Counted from the stretch's first letter, positions 1,189-10,401 are shown. The stretch: DNA of 10,401 bases from a virus (IMGVR_UViG_2671180770_000023); one strand, 5' to 3'. A program made the numbers and translations. The notes: generated by a model from the sequence alone, not told the origin.

Positions 1189-1602
1189 TCAGATGGTTTT
1201 CAGTATGCGATCGATGTCGCCGTCATCGCCCTGGTTTCTGCCATCGTATGCCATGCCAGCTGATACGGCTTGCGGGCTGTGCATGTCCATAAAGTTTTCA
1301 AAGGCTGCGGTAAGCTCTGGTGCAACCTTCTGGCGTTCCTGCTCTATGGTCATGCTAAGGATGCTTTTAGCCGTACCAACATCGATACAAGGCACGTTTG
1401 CCATTGCACGCAACAGCGGCTGATAGTCTTTATGCTCATGAAGCGCCATAATCGCATCAGCGCGCGGCTTGTCCTGCTCTTCCAGTTTGTTTAGTTGATA
1501 TACGGCCTCATAGGTTGATAAACCTCTGTCAGCCATTGCCCGCGCTTCGGCTTTAAATTTACTCGCCAGCGGTAGCGTCATGATGCTTTCATTCGTTGCC
1601 AT
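1189..1602 (-). CDS. Hypothetical head-module protein (137 aa), acidic C-terminus
   Basis: Tightly packed after the gpD-like gene. GGGGGA SD 3-4 nt upstream of ATG at 1602. No family recognised; any packaging or connector role is inferred from position only. Confidence 0.6.
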   Translation of the reverse strand: MATNESIMTLPLASKFKAEARAMADRGLSTYEAVYQLNKLEEQDKPRADAIMALHEHKDYQPLLRAMANVPCIDVGTAKSILSMTIEQERQKVAPELTAAFENFMDMHSPQAVSAGMAYDGRNQGDDGDIDRILKTI

Positions 1603-1961: not shown

Positions 1962-3017
1962 TTAACCAATTTTGACGGTAACAAATTTGCGAATATCTGC
2001 CGGTACCGGCTGCGGTGCACTGTGTGTCTGCACGTACTCAATCGCCGGATCTCCGTCCTCAATCCAGTTTTTCGGGTAGTACATGTTTTGCGTTGCCCCC
2101 GTTCTTACTGCGTCCTGATCCATAATCGCACCATAGGCCACCAGCCCTTTATTGTTGGTGTTGCCCAGGACAAGCAAATCAGGCTCAAGGAAATATTTTT
2201 CTCTGCCGTCACTGTCGGCGTATTTGCCGGAATAGACGATAAGGGCAATATCGCCCAGATAGCCTTTAAAGCTCACCACTTCGCCCAGGTTTTTACATGC
2301 CAGCTCTGCGGCGGACTCTGAACCACGGGAAAGATCGTACAGCTCACGGAATTTTTTAAAGCTGCGTAACGTTCGCCATACCTCAGCGCCCATAATCATG
2401 ACGTTGGCGGGGCAACCTGCCTGATCGGCGTATAGTTCGATATCATAGATTGGATCGTGGATTTCTTTGTCCTGCTCTGACCATTTTTTACCGTCGGCCT
2501 GCTCTATGATGTTTTTTTCCGGTATCTTCCAGTCGATTTCATAGCGCTCTATGCCTTCGCCCTCAATGATGTTTTTTCCGGTCGTTACCGCATTTACCGC
2601 CAGCCATTCCACGCGCGCTTTTATGGCGTTTATCTGGCGGCGCATATTGCCAGTAATCAGGCGCATACGGCGATAGGTAGGGTCGTTAAGCTGTGCCGGA
2701 TCTTCTCCAGCCATGCGCATGATGGTTTTCGTTGGATCGATTTCGTGCTTTGGCTTCATGTAGCCAGGTTTGATTGTGCTGGTTTCGTACCCTTTATCGC
2801 GCTGAACCTGGCTACCCACCATAGGCGAACAAAACGCCGACATGGTGACTTCTTCAATGTCCAGGGTATCCAGCATGATGTTTTGCGTGCTGAATGTCGC
2901 CACGTTCGGGAAAAACAGCGTGGTAAACAGCGGACTGAATTTAAATTCCGCAATATCCCCGCGATTCAGGTACGCAAAAAGCTGGTTAGTGTTAAGTGCC
3001 ATTGCTTTTACTGTCAT
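1962..3017 (-). CDS. Major capsid protein, lambda gpE family (351 aa)
   Basis: FKFSPLF..LFFP...TSTIKPGYMKPKHEIDP...DPTYRRMRL...YPKNW...GDPA matches recalled gpE (FKFDPLF..LFF...TSEFTPGYVKPKHEVNP...DPAYRRRRI...YPKNW...GDPA). ATG at 3017 lies 4 nt after a G10 run on the coding strand. Confidence 0.85.
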   Translation of the reverse strand: MTVKAMALNTNQLFAYLNRGDIAEFKFSPLFTTLFFPNVATFSTQNIMLDTLDIEEVTMSAFCSPMVGSQVQRDKGYETSTIKPGYMKPKHEIDPTKTIMRMAGEDPAQLNDPTYRRMRLITGNMRRQINAIKARVEWLAVNAVTTGKNIIEGEGIERYEIDWKIPEKNIIEQADGKKWSEQDKEIHDPIYDIELYADQAGCPANVMIMGAEVWRTLRSFKKFRELYDLSRGSESAAELACKNLGEVVSFKGYLGDIALIVYSGKYADSDGREKYFLEPDLLVLGNTNNKGLVAYGAIMDQDAVRTGATQNMYYPKNWIEDGDPAIEYVQTHSAPQPVPADIRKFVTVKIG

Positions 3018-3226
3018 TATTCCCCCCCCCCGTGAACCTGATTCATACCCAGCGCCGCGCGTAAATAGGCGCGTACCTGCCAGCCTGTTGACGGCTCAAC
3101 CATCGCCAGCGGGTCAAGTCCTGCCGCAATGCCTGCTTTTACGTTCTGCTGGTGGCGTTCCTTGAGCGCCTTCACGATGTCGGGGCTTATGTACACCGAA
3201 ACACCGCCTTTTTTCTCTTCAGCCAT
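3017..3226 (-). CDS. Hypothetical protein (69 aa) ending ...VHGGGE, encoded through the G10 tract
   Basis: ATG at 3226 with AGAGGA SD about 10 nt upstream. Its stop TAA (3019-3017) shares one base with the capsid ATG. No family recognised. Confidence 0.5.
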   Translation of the reverse strand: MAEEKKGGVSVYISPDIVKALKERHQQNVKAGIAAGLDPLAMVEPSTGWQVRAYLRAALGMNQVHGGGE

Positions 3227-3282
3227 AGTAAGAAATTCCTCTTTGACTTAAAAAATCATAACTGGATGTTCATCCAGTCCTG

Positions 3283-3310
3283 ATTATAATCAGGATTGCA
3301 TTTTGCGCAA
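3283..3310 (-). promoter_or_regulatory. Candidate sigma70 promoter for the 69-aa/capsid/decoration operon, embedded in palindromes
   Basis: Minus-strand TATAAT (forward 3288-3283) with TTGCGC 16 nt upstream (forward 3310-3305). The -10 sits at the centre of an 18-bp perfect palindrome TCCTGATTATAATCAGGA (3278-3295). A second palindrome ACTGGATG-tt-CATCCAGT (3261-3278) lies in the leader. Confidence 0.5.
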
Positions 3311-3463: not shown

Positions 3464-3874
3464 TCAGAACGGAATATCATCACCGTAGGGGTCATCGTCT
3501 CCCGCTGGTGGCTGATTACCCTGTGTGCCTGTGGTTTTGCGTCTGTTCCCGCCAGGACGTGCCGCACGGGCACTGATTACGCTGTCTGCAATAACCTGAT
3601 AACCCTGCCGCGTTTCCCCGTTCTGTCCGGTCCACTGGCTGACCTGCATCGTGCCGGATACGCTGGCAACGTCGCCTTTTTGATGTTTAGCCAGGAAGTC
3701 GGCCTGCTTACCAAATGCGATGACCGATAGCCATAACGTCGCCTGCCCATCCTGCGCCTGACTACATGGCAACGATACCGCCATACGCGCCAGCGTCATT
3801 GGTGTGCCCTTGCTGGTCTGTTTTACCTGCGGGTCGTCCACTAGCCGCCCGTAAGCGGCTATCTGTGCTGTCAT
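3464..3874 (-). CDS. ssb: Single-stranded DNA-binding protein (136 aa)
   Basis: OB-fold-like N-terminus, Gly/Pro/Gln-rich linker and the canonical acidic tail ...DDDPYGDDIPF. Start ATG overlaps the upstream stop as ATGA (3871-3874). Confidence 0.85.
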   Translation of the reverse strand: MTAQIAAYGRLVDDPQVKQTSKGTPMTLARMAVSLPCSQAQDGQATLWLSVIAFGKQADFLAKHQKGDVASVSGTMQVSQWTGQNGETRQGYQVIADSVISARAARPGGNRRKTTGTQGNQPPAGDDDPYGDDIPF

Positions 3875-4360: not shown

Positions 4361-4855
4361 TTATAAAAACGCGTCGCACTCGTCTGTTGTTATTGCGTTA
4401 GTCTGCGTTACCCCCTTAACTTTCCGCGTAATATATTCATGTCCGTAAACTTTTGCGGCAGGCTTCATAGCCTTGCCAAAGTCATTTACGTTTAGCGGTT
4501 TGCTCCTGCCTGCGTATGCCATAAACGCCAGATAGACGCGGTAAAGGCTGTTCCTGGTCGTGTACTTCACTGAATCGCCACCGCCGCCCATCATCAGGCC
4601 GCGTGCTTCCTCCAGAAAATTCAGGAACTGGCAAAACTCAATAACCGGATCCGTCTGTTGCTTTATTGCCAGAGCTTCATCACCGTCACGCTGTTCCAGT
4701 AGTAAAGCCCGTGCCTTCTCAGGGTCGGTAAAGTTCGCCAGCAATCGGCGGATAATGACAGGGATTTCAGCCGCGATCTTTTCCGGTAGCTCCCTGTCTT
4801 TTTCGGCCTCACTGACGATATTGTCGAAACGGAAAATCACGCGACGACGTGCCAC
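4361..4855 (-). CDS. P4-family primase/helicase, C-terminal segment, out of frame with the upstream segment (164 aa)
   Basis: Begins at a GTG. Sequence (A)RRRVIFRFDNIV...DPVIEFCQFL continues the conserved post-NTPase region expected after ...GVW in this family. Overlaps the upstream ORF by 19 nt in a different frame. Confidence 0.7.
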   Translation of the reverse strand: MARRRVIFRFDNIVSEAEKDRELPEKIAAEIPVIIRRLLANFTDPEKARALLLEQRDGDEALAIKQQTDPVIEFCQFLNFLEEARGLMMGGGGDSVKYTTRNSLYRVYLAFMAYAGRSKPLNVNDFGKAMKPAAKVYGHEYITRKVKGVTQTNAITTDECDAFL

Positions 4856-6108
4856 ACCCCGGCCCGTTCGGTGAATATCATCGGGTTATTGTTGGTCGCC
4901 AGCACCACCGCCCTGATTACAGCCGTGAAACGCTTTTCGTATTTCGGGTTAATTTCCACGGGGTCACCGCCCGTGATTTTCTTGATGCCCGTTCCTTCGC
5001 CTGTATATTTCGGCTGGTCAGCCAGGACGATAAGACGACTCCCGACAACCTGCGCACGTCCACCAGCATCATCAAGCGATGTCATTTCAGCGCTTACCGT
5101 GTTCTGTTTCCCTGCCAGAAGGCTGGCTATGTGCGTGAATGTACTTTTACCGCTCCCGCCGTCTCCGGTGGCCTCAATAAACATCTGCCAGTCGTACCGG
5201 TTCGCCATAATCATGTACAGCGCGGCACATATACGCATCATCTTGCGCGGGTCTTTTCCGGCTGCGTGCTTAAGCCATTTATGAAAGTTTGGCGCGTTAT
5301 CGCGGATGTTCTCCCCTGGTGCTGGTGGCGTGTACTCAATGCCGTTGTGCGTGGTGATCCAGTTCTCCGGCGTGTGCGGGGAAAATTCCCCCGTTTTCAG
5401 GTCAAGCGCACCATTGGCGAACGGCAGCAAATCGCCGGACGGCTCGCCCATTGGTTCGGCAATAACTTTTAACGCTTCCACGGCGTTATTGATTACGCGC
5501 TTGCTGAAAGTGGCCCTGTGCTCTGAATAGATCGCCACCATTTCGCGGCTAAGTTCCATTGTGCTGACCGGACACCATACCCCGCCGCGCCATACGTGAA
5601 CGATTTCACTTTCCTGATGCACACAAACGCCATCAAAGCGCTCGGCAAGCAGCTGCGCGCGCTCACTGTCTGCCATTTGTGCCAGTTGCGTATTTTTCTG
5701 CTCCGGCATGGTAAGCCCTGCGGCAATATTTTCACGCTCAGCATTCAGATAGCGCCGCCAGTTTTCACACTTCTGGACGTGCATTCCTTCGTGGTAAAAA
5801 TTTGCGTCCTGAATATCTGCCGCCGCCAGCTTCTGACCAATCTTTTTGGTCTCCACCAAATCCAGTTCTCCGGCCTGGTACAGCCTTACGCGTTTTTTTC
5901 CATCCGGAACAATTTTCAGTGCATCAAGTTCGGCAAGCTGATTTGGCCCAAGCCACACAGGCGGCACATTATCGCCGGATGCGGGGCCGTCCTGCTCCTG
6001 CCACTGTTTTGCATGTGCCCACGCATCACTACCCGCGAAAATAATTACCTCTGTGTCTTTGTGTTTTATTCCGCGTGGTTGTTTTTTTACGTTCGGTGCC
6101 AGTTTCAT
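4837..6108 (-). CDS. P4-family (D5-like) primase/helicase, N-terminal domain plus P-loop NTPase segment (423 aa)
   Basis: Walker A GDGGSGKST, Walker B-like RLIVLAD and KKITGGDPVEINPKYEKRF motif typical of the phage/plasmid primase P4-family C-terminal domain. AGGGG SD 6 nt upstream. ATG overlaps the upstream stop as ATGA. Confidence 0.8.
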   Translation of the reverse strand: MKLAPNVKKQPRGIKHKDTEVIIFAGSDAWAHAKQWQEQDGPASGDNVPPVWLGPNQLAELDALKIVPDGKKRVRLYQAGELDLVETKKIGQKLAAADIQDANFYHEGMHVQKCENWRRYLNAERENIAAGLTMPEQKNTQLAQMADSERAQLLAERFDGVCVHQESEIVHVWRGGVWCPVSTMELSREMVAIYSEHRATFSKRVINNAVEALKVIAEPMGEPSGDLLPFANGALDLKTGEFSPHTPENWITTHNGIEYTPPAPGENIRDNAPNFHKWLKHAAGKDPRKMMRICAALYMIMANRYDWQMFIEATGDGGSGKSTFTHIASLLAGKQNTVSAEMTSLDDAGGRAQVVGSRLIVLADQPKYTGEGTGIKKITGGDPVEINPKYEKRFTAVIRAVVLATNNNPMIFTERAGVWHVVA

Positions 6109-6860: not shown

Positions 6861-7080
6861 GTACCCCTCCGCATTTTTTTTCGTTAGAAATAAGCGTTCT
6901 TCTTTCCTGTTCATCGATCAGGAATACGCAGACCTCACCGCTAAGGCGTTTAAGTAAGCCGATGATTGCCCCTGATTCGCTGTCGGTCATCATGCCAGGG
7001 TAATCCTCTGCCAGTGCGCAAATAACTTCGATTTGGTGGGCGCGTTCTGCTGCCTGTTGTAGTGTGATTTCCTGGCTCAT
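6850..7080 (-). CDS. Hypothetical small protein (76 aa)
   Basis: ATG at 7080 overlaps the stop of the Icd-like gene as ATGA. The longer ORF-track version (start 7200) would overlap the Icd-like gene out of frame. Confidence 0.5.
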   Translation of the reverse strand: MSQEITLQQAAERAHQIEVICALAEDYPGMMTDSESGAIIGLLKRLSGEVCVFLIDEQERRTLISNEKKCGGVHVQ

Positions 7081-7244
7081 AAGCCTACCCCCTGACGAAT
7101 ACGGGCGACAAAAATCAGATGTGCGTGCGGCAGCTGGGCGCGGGCTTCGCGTTCTGTTGCTGCCGTGACGGTAAAGAGTGATGTTTGTTTTTCCTGGCAC
7201 TGCATAAAGCGCCAGACAAAGTAAGGGCGTGCGGATACAGCCAT
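7077..7244 (-). CDS. Icd-like / Ash-family-like small protein, copy 1 (55 aa)
   Basis: Motif VWRF...TEREAR...FVARIRQG. TAGGAGCC SD 8 nt upstream of ATG at 7244. Family call is from recalled motif, not a search. The frame stays open upstream to 7580 (see findings). Confidence 0.5.
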   Translation of the reverse strand: MAVSARPYFVWRFMQCQEKQTSLFTVTAATEREARAQLPHAHLIFVARIRQGVGL

Positions 7245-7530
7245 GTGAAAGGCTCCTACAGTAATTTTAAGGAGTCTCGCTACTACGCTGCTAAACGGGG
7301 TGGCGAGACGTAACAGGGTTAGCAGACTGGCACTGTAGGAACCAGCGAGCGCAAAGGCTCCCCCGTTACGCCCCGCCATAATGCGGGTATGGGTAGGCTT
7401 ACGGACACAAAAAAACCGCATATCGGAATATAAGCGGCTGTCCGCTACAGTATTCAGGCTGCTAAACCCGGTCGCCATGTGGGCGACGGGGGAAGCATAC
7501 AGCCCCGTTATAATTTTTTGCAAGCGGTTT

Positions 7531-7728
7531 TTACGCATGATGTGACCCCTGACGAATACGGGCGGCGAATACAGCAACACAACCGGACGGGCAACGGCTA
7601 CGCGCTTCGCGTTCCGTCCAGGCGGTTACGTGGATGATTTGAGATTCTCCGGCACTCAGTGCCAGAAAACGCCACACAAAGGCCGTTTGTGTGTGTACAA
7701 GGTGTGGTATATGATTTACAGCAACCAT
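7531..7728 (-). CDS. Icd-like / Ash-family-like small protein, copy 2 (65 aa)
   Basis: Motif VWRF...TEREAR...FAARIRQG, paralogous to copy 1. CTAGGAGCC SD 5 nt upstream of ATG at 7728. Confidence 0.5.
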   Translation of the reverse strand: MVAVNHIPHLVHTQTAFVWRFLALSAGESQIIHVTAWTEREARSRCPSGCVAVFAARIRQGSHHA

Positions 7729-9159: not shown

Positions 9160-10401
9160 CTACACGGCTCGGATACCCCTTTTACCACTGGCGAGGGTTA
9201 CGCCCGTCGCCGCAGCCTCGACAAATTCGCCCCACCAGCGCATCAGCACGATGCGTTTTTCTATGTAGTTGCTCCGGTTGTATGCCCGTCTAACTTCGTT
9301 GGTGTCGACGTGGGCAAGTGCCGCCTCTATTACGTCCGGCTCGAATCCTTCCTCGTTCGCTGCTGTGCTGAATATGGCGCGTAATCCATGAGACACCAGC
9401 ACGCCAGCGAATCCCATACGCCGCAATGCTGCGTTAGCTGTCTGGCTGTTCATCGGCTGCTGTGGGTCTTTCAGACTTGGGAAAACGTAATTGCGGTGGT
9501 GGCTGATTGGTTTCATGGCCTCCAGCACCGCCATAGCCTGACCGGAAAGCGGGATAACGTGATCCCTGCGCATCTTCATGCGTCCGGCAGGTATCGTCCA
9601 TTGCTTCGCGTCCAGGTTGATTTCATCCCACCGCGTTGATGACGCTTCGGCGGGACGGGTTACGGTCAGTAACTGCCATTCAATCAGTAATCTGGTCTGC
9701 CGTTCTGTTGCCGATACTGATAAAGCCTGCATAAGCTCCGGCAGCTGTTCGGGGCGGATTGTTGGCATATGTTTTTTTACAGGTGAGGGAAACGCCTTAC
9801 GCACATTCATAGCCGGATTGGCATCAATCAGCCCACTGTTGGCGGCGTAATCCATTACCTCATTAACGCGCTGTAAAACCCGCTTGAGTGTTTCCAGGTT
9901 GCCGCGCTCCTTGATGGGGGTAAGCACTTCAACGAACCTTCGGGCGGTGAGGGTATCTATTGGCGTGTTGCCGATGAACGGGAATACATATTTATCCAGC
10001 GAACGCCAGATGTCTTTAATCGTGTTGGGGGCCAGATTCTGGCTGATTTTCACCTGGTACCATGCCGCCGCCACATTTTCGAACGTGTTCCCTTGTCTTC
10101 GGGCCTCTGTCTCTCTTTTTTGCCTCTCGTGGTCCTGCGGGTCAGTTCCGGCACTGATTAACGTCCTGTACTCGCTACGGCGTTTTCTGGCATCAGCCAG
10201 GGAAACATCTTCAAGCGATCCAAAACTCAGCAATATTCTTTTTTTGTCCGATGGTCGGTAGTAGGAAAATCTCCAGAGTTTTGATCCAGACGGTTTGACC
10301 AGGAGAAAAAGCCCTCCGCCGTCCTGCAGGGTGTACTCCTTTTGCGCTGGTCTGGCTGCTTTGATCTGCACTGTGGTTAATGGGTGTGTTTTTCTCGCCA
10401 T
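9160..10401 (-). CDS. int: Tyrosine recombinase, P4-type integrase (413 aa)
   Basis: N-terminal arm-binding-like region (GGGLFLLVKPSGSKLWRFSYY...) typical of P4-like integrases. Catalytic H-x-x-R (HGLRAIF) and C-terminal Tyr region (RAYNRSNYIEKR). ATG is the last three bases of the window. Confidence 0.9.
   Translation of the reverse strand: MARKTHPLTTVQIKAARPAQKEYTLQDGGGLFLLVKPSGSKLWRFSYYRPSDKKRILLSFGSLEDVSLADARKRRSEYRTLISAGTDPQDHERQKRETEARRQGNTFENVAAAWYQVKISQNLAPNTIKDIWRSLDKYVFPFIGNTPIDTLTARRFVEVLTPIKERGNLETLKRVLQRVNEVMDYAANSGLIDANPAMNVRKAFPSPVKKHMPTIRPEQLPELMQALSVSATERQTRLLIEWQLLTVTRPAEASSTRWDEINLDAKQWTIPAGRMKMRRDHVIPLSGQAMAVLEAMKPISHHRNYVFPSLKDPQQPMNSQTANAALRRMGFAGVLVSHGLRAIFSTAANEEGFEPDVIEAALAHVDTNEVRRAYNRSNYIEKRIVLMRWWGEFVEAAATGVTLASGKRGIRAV

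Follow-up and report, generated by a model that had tools for sequence, protein, structure and literature searches.

The run of ten guanines that joins a small open reading frame (ORF) to a capsid gene in this phage satellite is probably a mutated ribosome-binding site. We favour, with a probability of roughly 0.8, an ordinary Shine-Dalgarno (SD) and translational-coupling junction in which the homopolymer arose incidentally by mutation, and not a programmed frameshift signal or a phase-variation device.

Island identity and gene content

The DNA analysed here, called the window throughout, is a stretch of 10,401 nt that is 100% identical to contig CYAV01000012.1 of the E. coli assembly GCA_001277695.1, and all of its genes lie on the minus strand. 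Judged by synteny and Pfam content, it is an EcCICFT073-type phage satellite (PICI) of E. coli, as had been guessed when the element was taken for a satellite island from its sequence alone. We place it in the EcCICFT073 PICI family because it is collinear with the island of CFT073 (NC_004431, 1377622-1393693), Nissle 1917 and O157:H7; a collinear island is found in approximately 600 of 5,426 complete E. coli genomes, these three included. The gene content is that of a PICI, with a tyrosine integrase at the boundary, a primase-type replication module, a packaging module that exploits the helper (capsid E-like, decoration D-like and Nu1-like TerS/Rpp genes) and EcCICFT073 synteny. The Pfam matches were D5_N/DUF5906 (primase), SSB, Phage_cap_E, HDPD (gpD-like decoration) and Phage_Nu1 (Nu1-like small terminase). 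Three genes are needed for orientation:

9160-10401, minus strand: integrase ORF, at the far end of the window
1962..3017, minus strand: homologue of the lambda gpE-like major capsid protein, 351 aa (PF03864, E = 8e-51), homologous to EcCICFT073 c1499
3017..3226, minus strand: 69-aa ORF (WP_054495078.1), homologous to the 68-aa gene just upstream of the EcCICFT073 capsid gene

Every E. coli relative has the capsid gene annotated as 'major capsid protein'. The window resembles EcCICFT073 in its gene order, with 92-97% nucleotide identity across the capsid module, and in having the same junction between the 68-aa ORF and the capsid gene. It differs at the junction itself, where EcCICFT073 has its own allele, G5TG, with a TGA in the capsid frame, whereas the window has G10 and one extra glycine; the window also has a different set of early genes and a primase gene frameshifted by a 1-nt deletion relative to its relatives (GGAGG to GGGG at about position 4858). 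Induction by a helper phage and high-frequency transfer have been shown for EcCICFT073 itself only (PMC6092414, PMC6739421).

Sequence anatomy of the junction

The coding strand reads ...CAG GTT CAC GGG GGG GGG GAA TAA TG ACA GTA... across the junction, and its elements are the following:

3031-3022, coding (minus) strand: G10 homopolymer (C10 on the plus strand), forming the 3' end of the 69-aa ORF and the probable SD element of the capsid gene
3015..3019, minus strand: TAATG, in which the stop of the small ORF overlaps the capsid start by 1 base, a translational-coupling arrangement
3096..3098, minus strand: TGA, the nearest upstream stop in the capsid frame of the G10 allele

The TAA of the small ORF (3019-3017) and the ATG of the capsid gene (3017-3015) share one base, and 4 nt (AATA) separate the 3' end of the tract from that ATG. 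The sequence-only reading had described the coding-strand G10, which ends 4 nt short of the capsid ATG, as the only SD-like element there, and the sequence bears this out. It was also right that the tract encodes Gly-Gly-Gly but mistook these residues for the C-terminus of the 69-aa ORF, which ends in Gly-Gly-Gly-Glu, the tenth G being the first base of the Glu codon. No other G or C run of at least 8 occurs in the 10.4-kb window, nor any other run of 10 of any base; 0.03 such runs are expected per window, and they appeared in 4 of 200 dinucleotide-preserving shuffles.

Changing the tract length in silico shows what is at stake. With G8, G11 or G14 the small ORF and the capsid ORF become fused, while G9 and G12 lengthen the small ORF to 77-78 aa. 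The earlier claim that a single additional G would yield an N-terminally extended capsid protein therefore holds as arithmetic: the G11 fusion has 421 aa and 47.0 kDa, compared with 39.6 kDa for the capsid protein alone, and would be recognised by the junction-spanning peptide ...QVHGGGGIMTVK.... Upstream of its ATG, the capsid frame of the G10 allele stays open for 27 codons, to the TGA at 3098, and those 27 codons contain no alternative start codon.

A conserved, probable Shine-Dalgarno element in related islands

Complete genomes, IMG/VR and metagenomes supplied 31 related loci in which we read the junction. The alleles found among them, and the junctions of three more distant homologue groups, were:

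27/31 loci: GGGGGTGA-ATA-ATG
3/31 loci: G7
1/31 loci: G6TG, on a metagenome contig
Pluralibacter: GGAGGTGAATAATG
Salmonella: GGAGGTGAATGATG
A further homologue group (L047, L048): GGGGGTGAGTAATG

In the last three groups the small protein is 60-66% identical, and the junctions were taken from the contigs that encode it; in all three the tract is interrupted. A search for related loci with the 69-aa protein among genome contigs gave no confirmed relative. Across Escherichia, Salmonella and Pluralibacter the junction follows the pattern GG(A/G)GGTGA(A/G)-T(A/G)A-TG, and TAATG or TGATG is present in all of the at least 37 junctions read, those of Salmonella and Pluralibacter included. Overlap of the upstream stop with the downstream start is thus a shared property of the homologues, as expected of a coupling arrangement.

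On this comparison the conserved object is GG(A/G)GGTGA, which departs very little from the canonical SD GGAGGUGA and is located 3 nt before the start; complementarity to the 3' end of 16S rRNA is conserved, and the G run is not. Complementarity to that 3' end is retained in G10, 4 nt before the ATG and so within the spacing of 4-9 nt expected of an SD. The predicted SD/anti-SD duplex energies were:

GGAGGUGA: -15.4 kcal/mol
G5UG (common allele): -14.5 kcal/mol
G7: -10.5 kcal/mol
G10: -11.5 kcal/mol

The SD of G7 and G10 is therefore predicted to be weaker by 3-4 kcal/mol. The junction region is not more structured than its shuffles (z = +1.38).

The common allele has a second property. Within its SD (GGGGGTGA), two codons ahead of the ATG, stands a TGA in the capsid frame; since the T of the SD forms this stop, an indel in the G run cannot fuse the two ORFs. 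The G6TG contig illustrates this, as its extra G runs into the TGA and no fusion results. In G7 and G10 this guard is gone, and its loss, together with the weaker SD, could have consequences.

According to these observations, the G-rich element would be the SD of the satellite capsid-homologue gene, placed within the last codons (Gly-Gly-Glu) of the 68-aa gene. Ribosomes that finish the small ORF, or that bind de novo at the strong SD, would start the capsid gene, and the small protein and the capsid homologue would be made separately but in a coupled way. Classic stop/start coupling with the SD inside the upstream ORF is known from the UGAUG overlaps of E. coli trpE-trpD and trpB-trpA and from many phage structural operons. 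The junction studied here is like them in its TAATG, in a strong SD, GG(A/G)GGUGA, placed 3-6 nt before the ATG in the last codons of the preceding gene, and in an arrangement conserved across genera. It differs in that the SD has mutated to a 10-nt homopolymer in one lineage, and in that we infer the coupling from its layout.

Origin and distribution of the G10 allele

G10 was found in none of the 5,426 complete E. coli genomes. When the window junction was used as query against them, the best of 290 matches was a single G7 genome (96.0% identity), which showed a 3-nt gap only and was the sole match free of substitutions. An IMG/VR scan with the pattern CACGGGGGGN{0,8}AATAATGACAGTAAAAGC gave two matches, both G7 and neither G10, and the same long-G pattern (at least 6 G's) was absent from metagenome contigs and from GTDB representative genomes. 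The exact 69-aa protein (WP_054495078.1) occurs on 7 draft contigs, whose islands are 99.9-100% identical. Five of these were read and all carry G10: GCA_002522165.1, GCA_001277695.1, GCA_012595785.1 and the Logan assemblies ERR134545 and SRR34931438, of which ERR134545 may be the read set of GCA_001277695.1. The G10 lineage consists of these 7 contigs, and its uniformity is partly built in, because retrieval used the exact 69-aa protein. Among 24 contigs with an identical capsid protein that were read, a 69-aa upstream ORF was shown only for the window's own contig, and the four other contigs shown have a 68-aa upstream ORF.

Near-identical islands carry the shorter alleles, G5TG in L038 and G7 in L039, L041 and L042. 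Apart from the GGG insertion, 2-7 substitutions over 3-4 kb separate them from the window, and the G7 islands are only 2-3 SNPs in 3-4 kb away from it. The allele history that best fits these differences runs from G5TG to G7 through a T>G substitution, synonymous for the small ORF, and from G7 to G10 by the addition of GGG; G10 would then be a private allele of one very recent E. coli clade. In terms of mechanism, the ancestral and widespread element GG(A/G)GGTGA would have become G7 in one recent E. coli lineage, which destroyed the capsid-frame TGA, and a 3-nt slippage would have produced G10, adding one glycine to a disordered tail while the tract still served as SD. Since then the G10 clade has acquired a few SNPs and two unrelated frameshifts (the 1-nt deletion in the window primase gene, and A6 to A5 in the capsid gene of L037), and the tract is still 10.

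It might be argued that the island really has the common 7-nt element and that G10 is a homopolymer or poly-G miscall, as the sequence-only reading suspected when it called the tract a likely place for sequencing error. Homopolymers are indeed error-prone, and the 1-nt deletion in the window primase (about 4858) could hint at base-calling problems. However, at least 4-5 assemblies produced independently of one another share G10, two of them Logan assemblies built from raw runs, and L033 has G10 without the primase deletion. The change is also a clean in-frame step of three on top of G7, itself attested in complete genomes, IMG/VR and drafts. As the same G10 stands in 7 contigs, it is not a one-off sequencing error, and we regard a miscall as very improbable.

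Length variation at the capsid junction

A G10 tract is a likely hotspot of replication slippage. This would be a side effect of the mutated SD, with +1 or -2 products fusing the ORFs, and by analogy the window's tract is probably such a hotspot, in which a +1 slip would cause fusion in the G10/G7 lineage alone. One may then ask whether the G7/G10 lineage holds a nascent contingency locus, in which frequent slippage switches sub-populations, heritably and reversibly, between separate proteins (G10), a fusion of the 69-aa ORF with the capsid (G11/G8), and a lengthened small ORF accompanied by altered translation of the capsid (G9/G12). The tract is uninterrupted and exceeds the approximately 7-8 nt, in or near a coding region, typical of such loci. 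G10 lies well above the length at which poly-G tracts cause phase variation in other bacteria, such as the G10 of Klebsiella rmpA (bioRxiv 10.1101/2025.09.12.675794), and the TGA guard was lost, making fusion possible in the G7/G10 lineage only.

The distribution of alleles points the other way. The tract is not conserved, G5TG or GGAGGTGA being present in 27/31 loci, while rmpA-type tracts keep a modal uninterrupted length across lineages (bioRxiv 10.1101/2025.09.12.675794). The alleles at this junction are G5TG, G7 and G10, all in frame, plus the one G6TG metagenome contig; no out-of-frame length is recorded in the G7 or the G10 lineage, and the sole expansion is in frame. Close isolates lack the length polymorphism of a switch, with only G7 and G10 in near-identical islands, and G10 remained unchanged while the islands gained several SNPs and the two unrelated frameshifts. 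All 58 complete genomes sampled evenly from the 610 with the junction were free of indels and annotated as two genes; these are consensus assemblies, which cannot show length heterogeneity within a population.

The predicted proteins agree. The exact products predicted for G5, G6, G8, G9, G11, G12 and G13 on the window's background are absent from approximately 15 billion proteins. A homology search with the 421-aa fusion gave 61 matches, which cover the capsid part only, with none reaching the N-terminal part; full-length capsid matches were 316-355 aa long, and one 463-aa match is an unrelated capsid-decoration read-through.

In comparison with the poly-G contingency loci of Klebsiella (rmpA G10), Neisseria and Campylobacter, the likeness is an uninterrupted coding G10 in which a change of one nucleotide alters the products. 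The differences are that the tract is neither conserved across lineages nor polymorphic in length, and that it lies at the extreme 3' end of its ORF, where the small protein is barely affected. Apart from the G6TG contig, the comparison across related islands that had been proposed earlier revealed only in-frame lengths at this junction. Functional homologous islands in which the tract is interrupted had also been named beforehand as evidence against switching; the sequence half of this applies, EcCICFT073, the experimentally mobilised prototype, being G5TG. Given an interrupted tract in 27/31 related loci and no out-of-frame lengths in the genomes sampled, the proposal of a phase-variable fusion site is not supported, and we consider a contingency locus unlikely.

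Frame-breaking products at the capsid junction appear to be selected against. Since only frame-preserving changes survived there, selection would keep a separate small protein and a separate capsid homologue. This argument rests mainly on the absence of other variants, because the in-frame step of three is a single event.

A second poly-G junction in the island family

In related islands, but not in the window, the sequence ...GAAAAT-G(n)-TTATGCGTGA... joins two small early ORFs, with n = 7, 8, 9, 10 or 11. Among complete genomes sampled evenly, 17 rows aligned over 87 nt, 14 over 88 nt, 11 over 89 nt and 2 over 90 nt, and G7, G9 and G10 were verified directly in the sequence. Annotation follows the length: G8 and G11 appear as two ORFs, G7 and G10 as a fused ORF of 152-154 aa, and G9 as a 'frameshifted' pseudogene. 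The 153-aa early ORF of the window (7077-7538) was considered as a fused homologue of this second site and rejected, the proteins being unrelated.

As the same data reveal poly-G length variants at this second site, the negative results at the capsid junction are informative. That another poly-G junction of the island family varies from G7 to G11 counts in favour of a contingency locus at the capsid gene as well; against it, the second-site lengths are fixed within the clones sampled, all O157:H7 rows being G7 and all Nissle-type rows G8, which suggests that switching there is slow rather than rapid in E. coli.

A related proposal is a contingency locus at its birth, in which loss of the TGA and expansion to G10 accidentally made an evolvable switch. 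It gains some plausibility because the second junction (G7-G11) fuses and splits two early ORFs, and we still think it quite unlikely. If true, a G11/G8 sub-population would make the fusion of the 69-aa ORF with the capsid, for example as a dominant-negative or scaffold-like capsid variant, and the fusion would alter interference with the helper phage or packaging of the satellite.

Frameshifting and transcriptional slippage

Phages offer precedents for capsid proteins with alternative ends. T7 gene 10A/10B products are made by -1 frameshifting, and HK97 gp5 carries an N-terminal delta scaffolding domain. The hypothetical G11 capsid with its N-terminal extension formally resembles a delta-domain fusion. 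It differs from both precedents in that an efficient slippery site, a stimulator and conservation are missing, the upstream ORF has no scaffold similarity, and the homologues contain no natural fusion.

Programmed recoding would act in a fixed fraction of ribosomes, by a -1 shift on G_GGG_GGG, or through insertion of a G by RNA polymerase, and would yield a minor, N-terminally extended capsid protein acting in assembly or interference. An X_XXZ_ZZN heptamer, G_GGG_GGG, does lie in the zero frame at 3029-3023 and is the only zero-frame heptamer; the -1 frame runs directly into the capsid ORF, and the zero-frame stop follows one codon later. The heptamer and the open -1 frame are, however, the only features of a programmed site that we found, efficiency, stimulator and conservation being lacking. 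The heptamer is absent from all relatives. In E. coli, GGGGGGG without a stimulator gave 0.030 +/- 0.002% -1 frameshifting in a sequence context other than the G10 junction, at or below the no-motif background of 0.055%; the IS911 stimulators raised it to 0.088%, and the IS3 pseudoknot to 1.07% (Sharma et al. 2014, PMC4066793). Downstream of the tract, 92 nt have a predicted folding energy of -14.9 kcal/mol, no better than shuffles (z = +0.37), and no SD-like motif occurs in the 12 nt (TGAATCAGGTTC) that lie 6-17 nt before the heptamer.

As for the polymerase, a transcriptional slippage site would be a conserved A or T run of at least about 9 nt, and the tract is a G run that is not conserved. 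Homopolymer insertions in E. coli transcripts fall outside G/C runs, 100% of them occurring in A/T runs and 0 in G/C (Traverse and Ochman 2017, PMC5574713). This survey bears on G10 indirectly, as the G/C runs native to E. coli do not reach a length of 10. Lack of conservation at the site makes programmed recoding very unlikely. The earlier idea of a programmed scaffold-capsid fusion fares poorly against the 0.030% frameshifting, the missing stimulator and the lack of transcriptional insertions in G/C runs.

The small ORF upstream of the capsid gene

The 69-aa protein has one glycine more than all its relatives. It belongs to phrog_3255 (unknown function; E = 3e-36), and no match was obtained for it in Pfam or, by tblastn, in 50,697 phage records. 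Its AF2 model (pLDDT 76) consists of a beta-hairpin, two helices and a disordered C-terminal tail, with residues 65-69 at pLDDT < 50, and structural comparison of the model gave no fold match. The low confidence of the tail is consistent with an extra glycine being tolerated there. With neither its phrog, Pfam, fold comparison nor the phage records offering any similarity to a scaffold, the role of scaffold that had been suggested for this ORF finds no backing. A ribbon-helix-helix identity was also considered for the small protein and is unsupported. The sole scaffold-like hint in the module comes from a 137-aa ORF (1189-1602) whose match is to the C-terminal portion of the head maturation protease phrog_53 (E = 6e-9).

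In homologues of 60-99% identity the next gene is always the capsid gene. Their alignment shows an invariant C-terminus, (H/Y)-G-G-E, which fits a constraint at the DNA level because the SD lies in those codons. As both the pairing and the overlap are constant, the small gene seems to be functionally linked to the capsid homologue, which the conserved neighbourhood suggests.

Biological implications

On the reading that we prefer, an ordinary coupled junction, a conspicuous homopolymer is accounted for by mutation of a ribosome-binding site, and one candidate signal for recoding or phase variation falls away; as the result stands, its importance is small. G-rich SDs at overlapping gene junctions of these islands would be seeds for poly-G tracts. 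The second poly-G site could be a real polymorphic switch and is a more promising lead than the capsid junction.

The comparison also draws attention to the 68-aa gene, which would be satellite-specific, always precedes the EcCICFT073-type capsid-homologue gene and is probably coupled to capsid translation. The EcCICFT073 homologues of the capsid and decoration proteins are c1499 and c1500 (PMC6092414). Interference with lambda persists when either c1499 or c1500 is deleted, and the capsids that package the island are of phage size (PMC6092414, PMC6739421). Studies of the role of c1499 and c1500 should thus take in the 68-aa gene.

Inactivating indels in islands of the G10 lineage

The D5-type primase of the window is split in two by a 1-nt deletion (GGAGG to GGGG) compared with its relatives, in which the primase is one gene of 582-584 aa. 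It is intact in L033, an otherwise near-identical island of the G10 lineage, the few islands that share the run of ten G on the minus strand (3031-3022). Judging from the sequence, this island copy is probably replication-defective, unless the primase deletion is a base-calling error. In L037, also a G10 island, a deletion (A6 to A5) breaks the capsid gene.

4837-6108 and 4361-4855, minus strand: split D5-type primase, ORFs of 423 aa and 164 aa, break at 4855-4860
L037 (Logan SRR34931438) 820-1874, window equivalent about 2489: capsid gene split into ORFs of 206 aa and 145 aa

These two inactivating indels are independent and occur among five nearly identical islands, reflecting either relaxed selection in the G10 lineage or assembly error.

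Organization of the capsid module

The 69-aa ORF (3226-3017, minus strand), directly upstream of the capsid gene, is preceded by a 240-nt gap that contains hairpins and a palindrome.

3457-3437, minus strand: terminator-like hairpin, after SSB
within 3260-3292, minus strand: 18-bp perfect palindrome TCCTGATTATAATCAGGA, upstream of the 69-aa ORF
3279-3260, minus strand: second hairpin and T-run, directly 3' of the palindrome, just before the RBS of the 69-aa ORF

No sigma-70-like promoter was found in this gap. The capsid module may rely on an activator or on antitermination.

Another small gene follows the decoration gene.

1189-1602, minus strand: 137-aa ORF

Its PGAP annotation is 'hypothetical' in some cases and 'phage head-tail connector protein' in others, and it matches the C-terminal part of phrog_53 (head maturation protease; positions 495-567 of 583, E = 6e-9). 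If the capsid module has a scaffold-like gene at all, it would be this 137-aa ORF and not the 69-aa ORF, which had earlier been labelled scaffold.

On one related Logan contig outside the window, the capsid and decoration proteins are fused, PF03864 and PF02924 lying in a single 463-aa product (P0031), presumably a variant produced by read-through or by an indel where the capsid and decoration genes meet.

A second poly-G tract in related islands

EcCICFT073-type relatives, not the window, carry another poly-G tract, in the context ...GCTGATTGTGAAAAT-G(n)-TTATGCGTGATGATCG..., where two small early ORFs overlap (C_RS06965 and C_RS06970 of CFT073).

L006 (CFT073, NC_004431) 3852-3859, outside the window: second poly-G tract
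L005 2917-2924, outside the window: second poly-G tract
L007 3483-3493, outside the window: second poly-G tract
L009, L021, L022, L024 and L049-L051, outside the window: second poly-G tract

Its length in these related islands ranges from n = 7 to 11. G8 or G11 gives two ORFs overlapping by ATGCGTGA, G7 or G10 gives a single fused ORF of 152-154 aa, as seen in sampled O157:H7 genomes, and G9 is annotated as 'frameshifted'. When the 973 complete genomes were sampled evenly, the aligned span was equivalent to G7 in 17 rows, to G8 in 14, to G9 in 11 and to G10 in 2. Tract length looks constant within clones, and this second tract may be a genuine polymorphic switch between fused and split forms.
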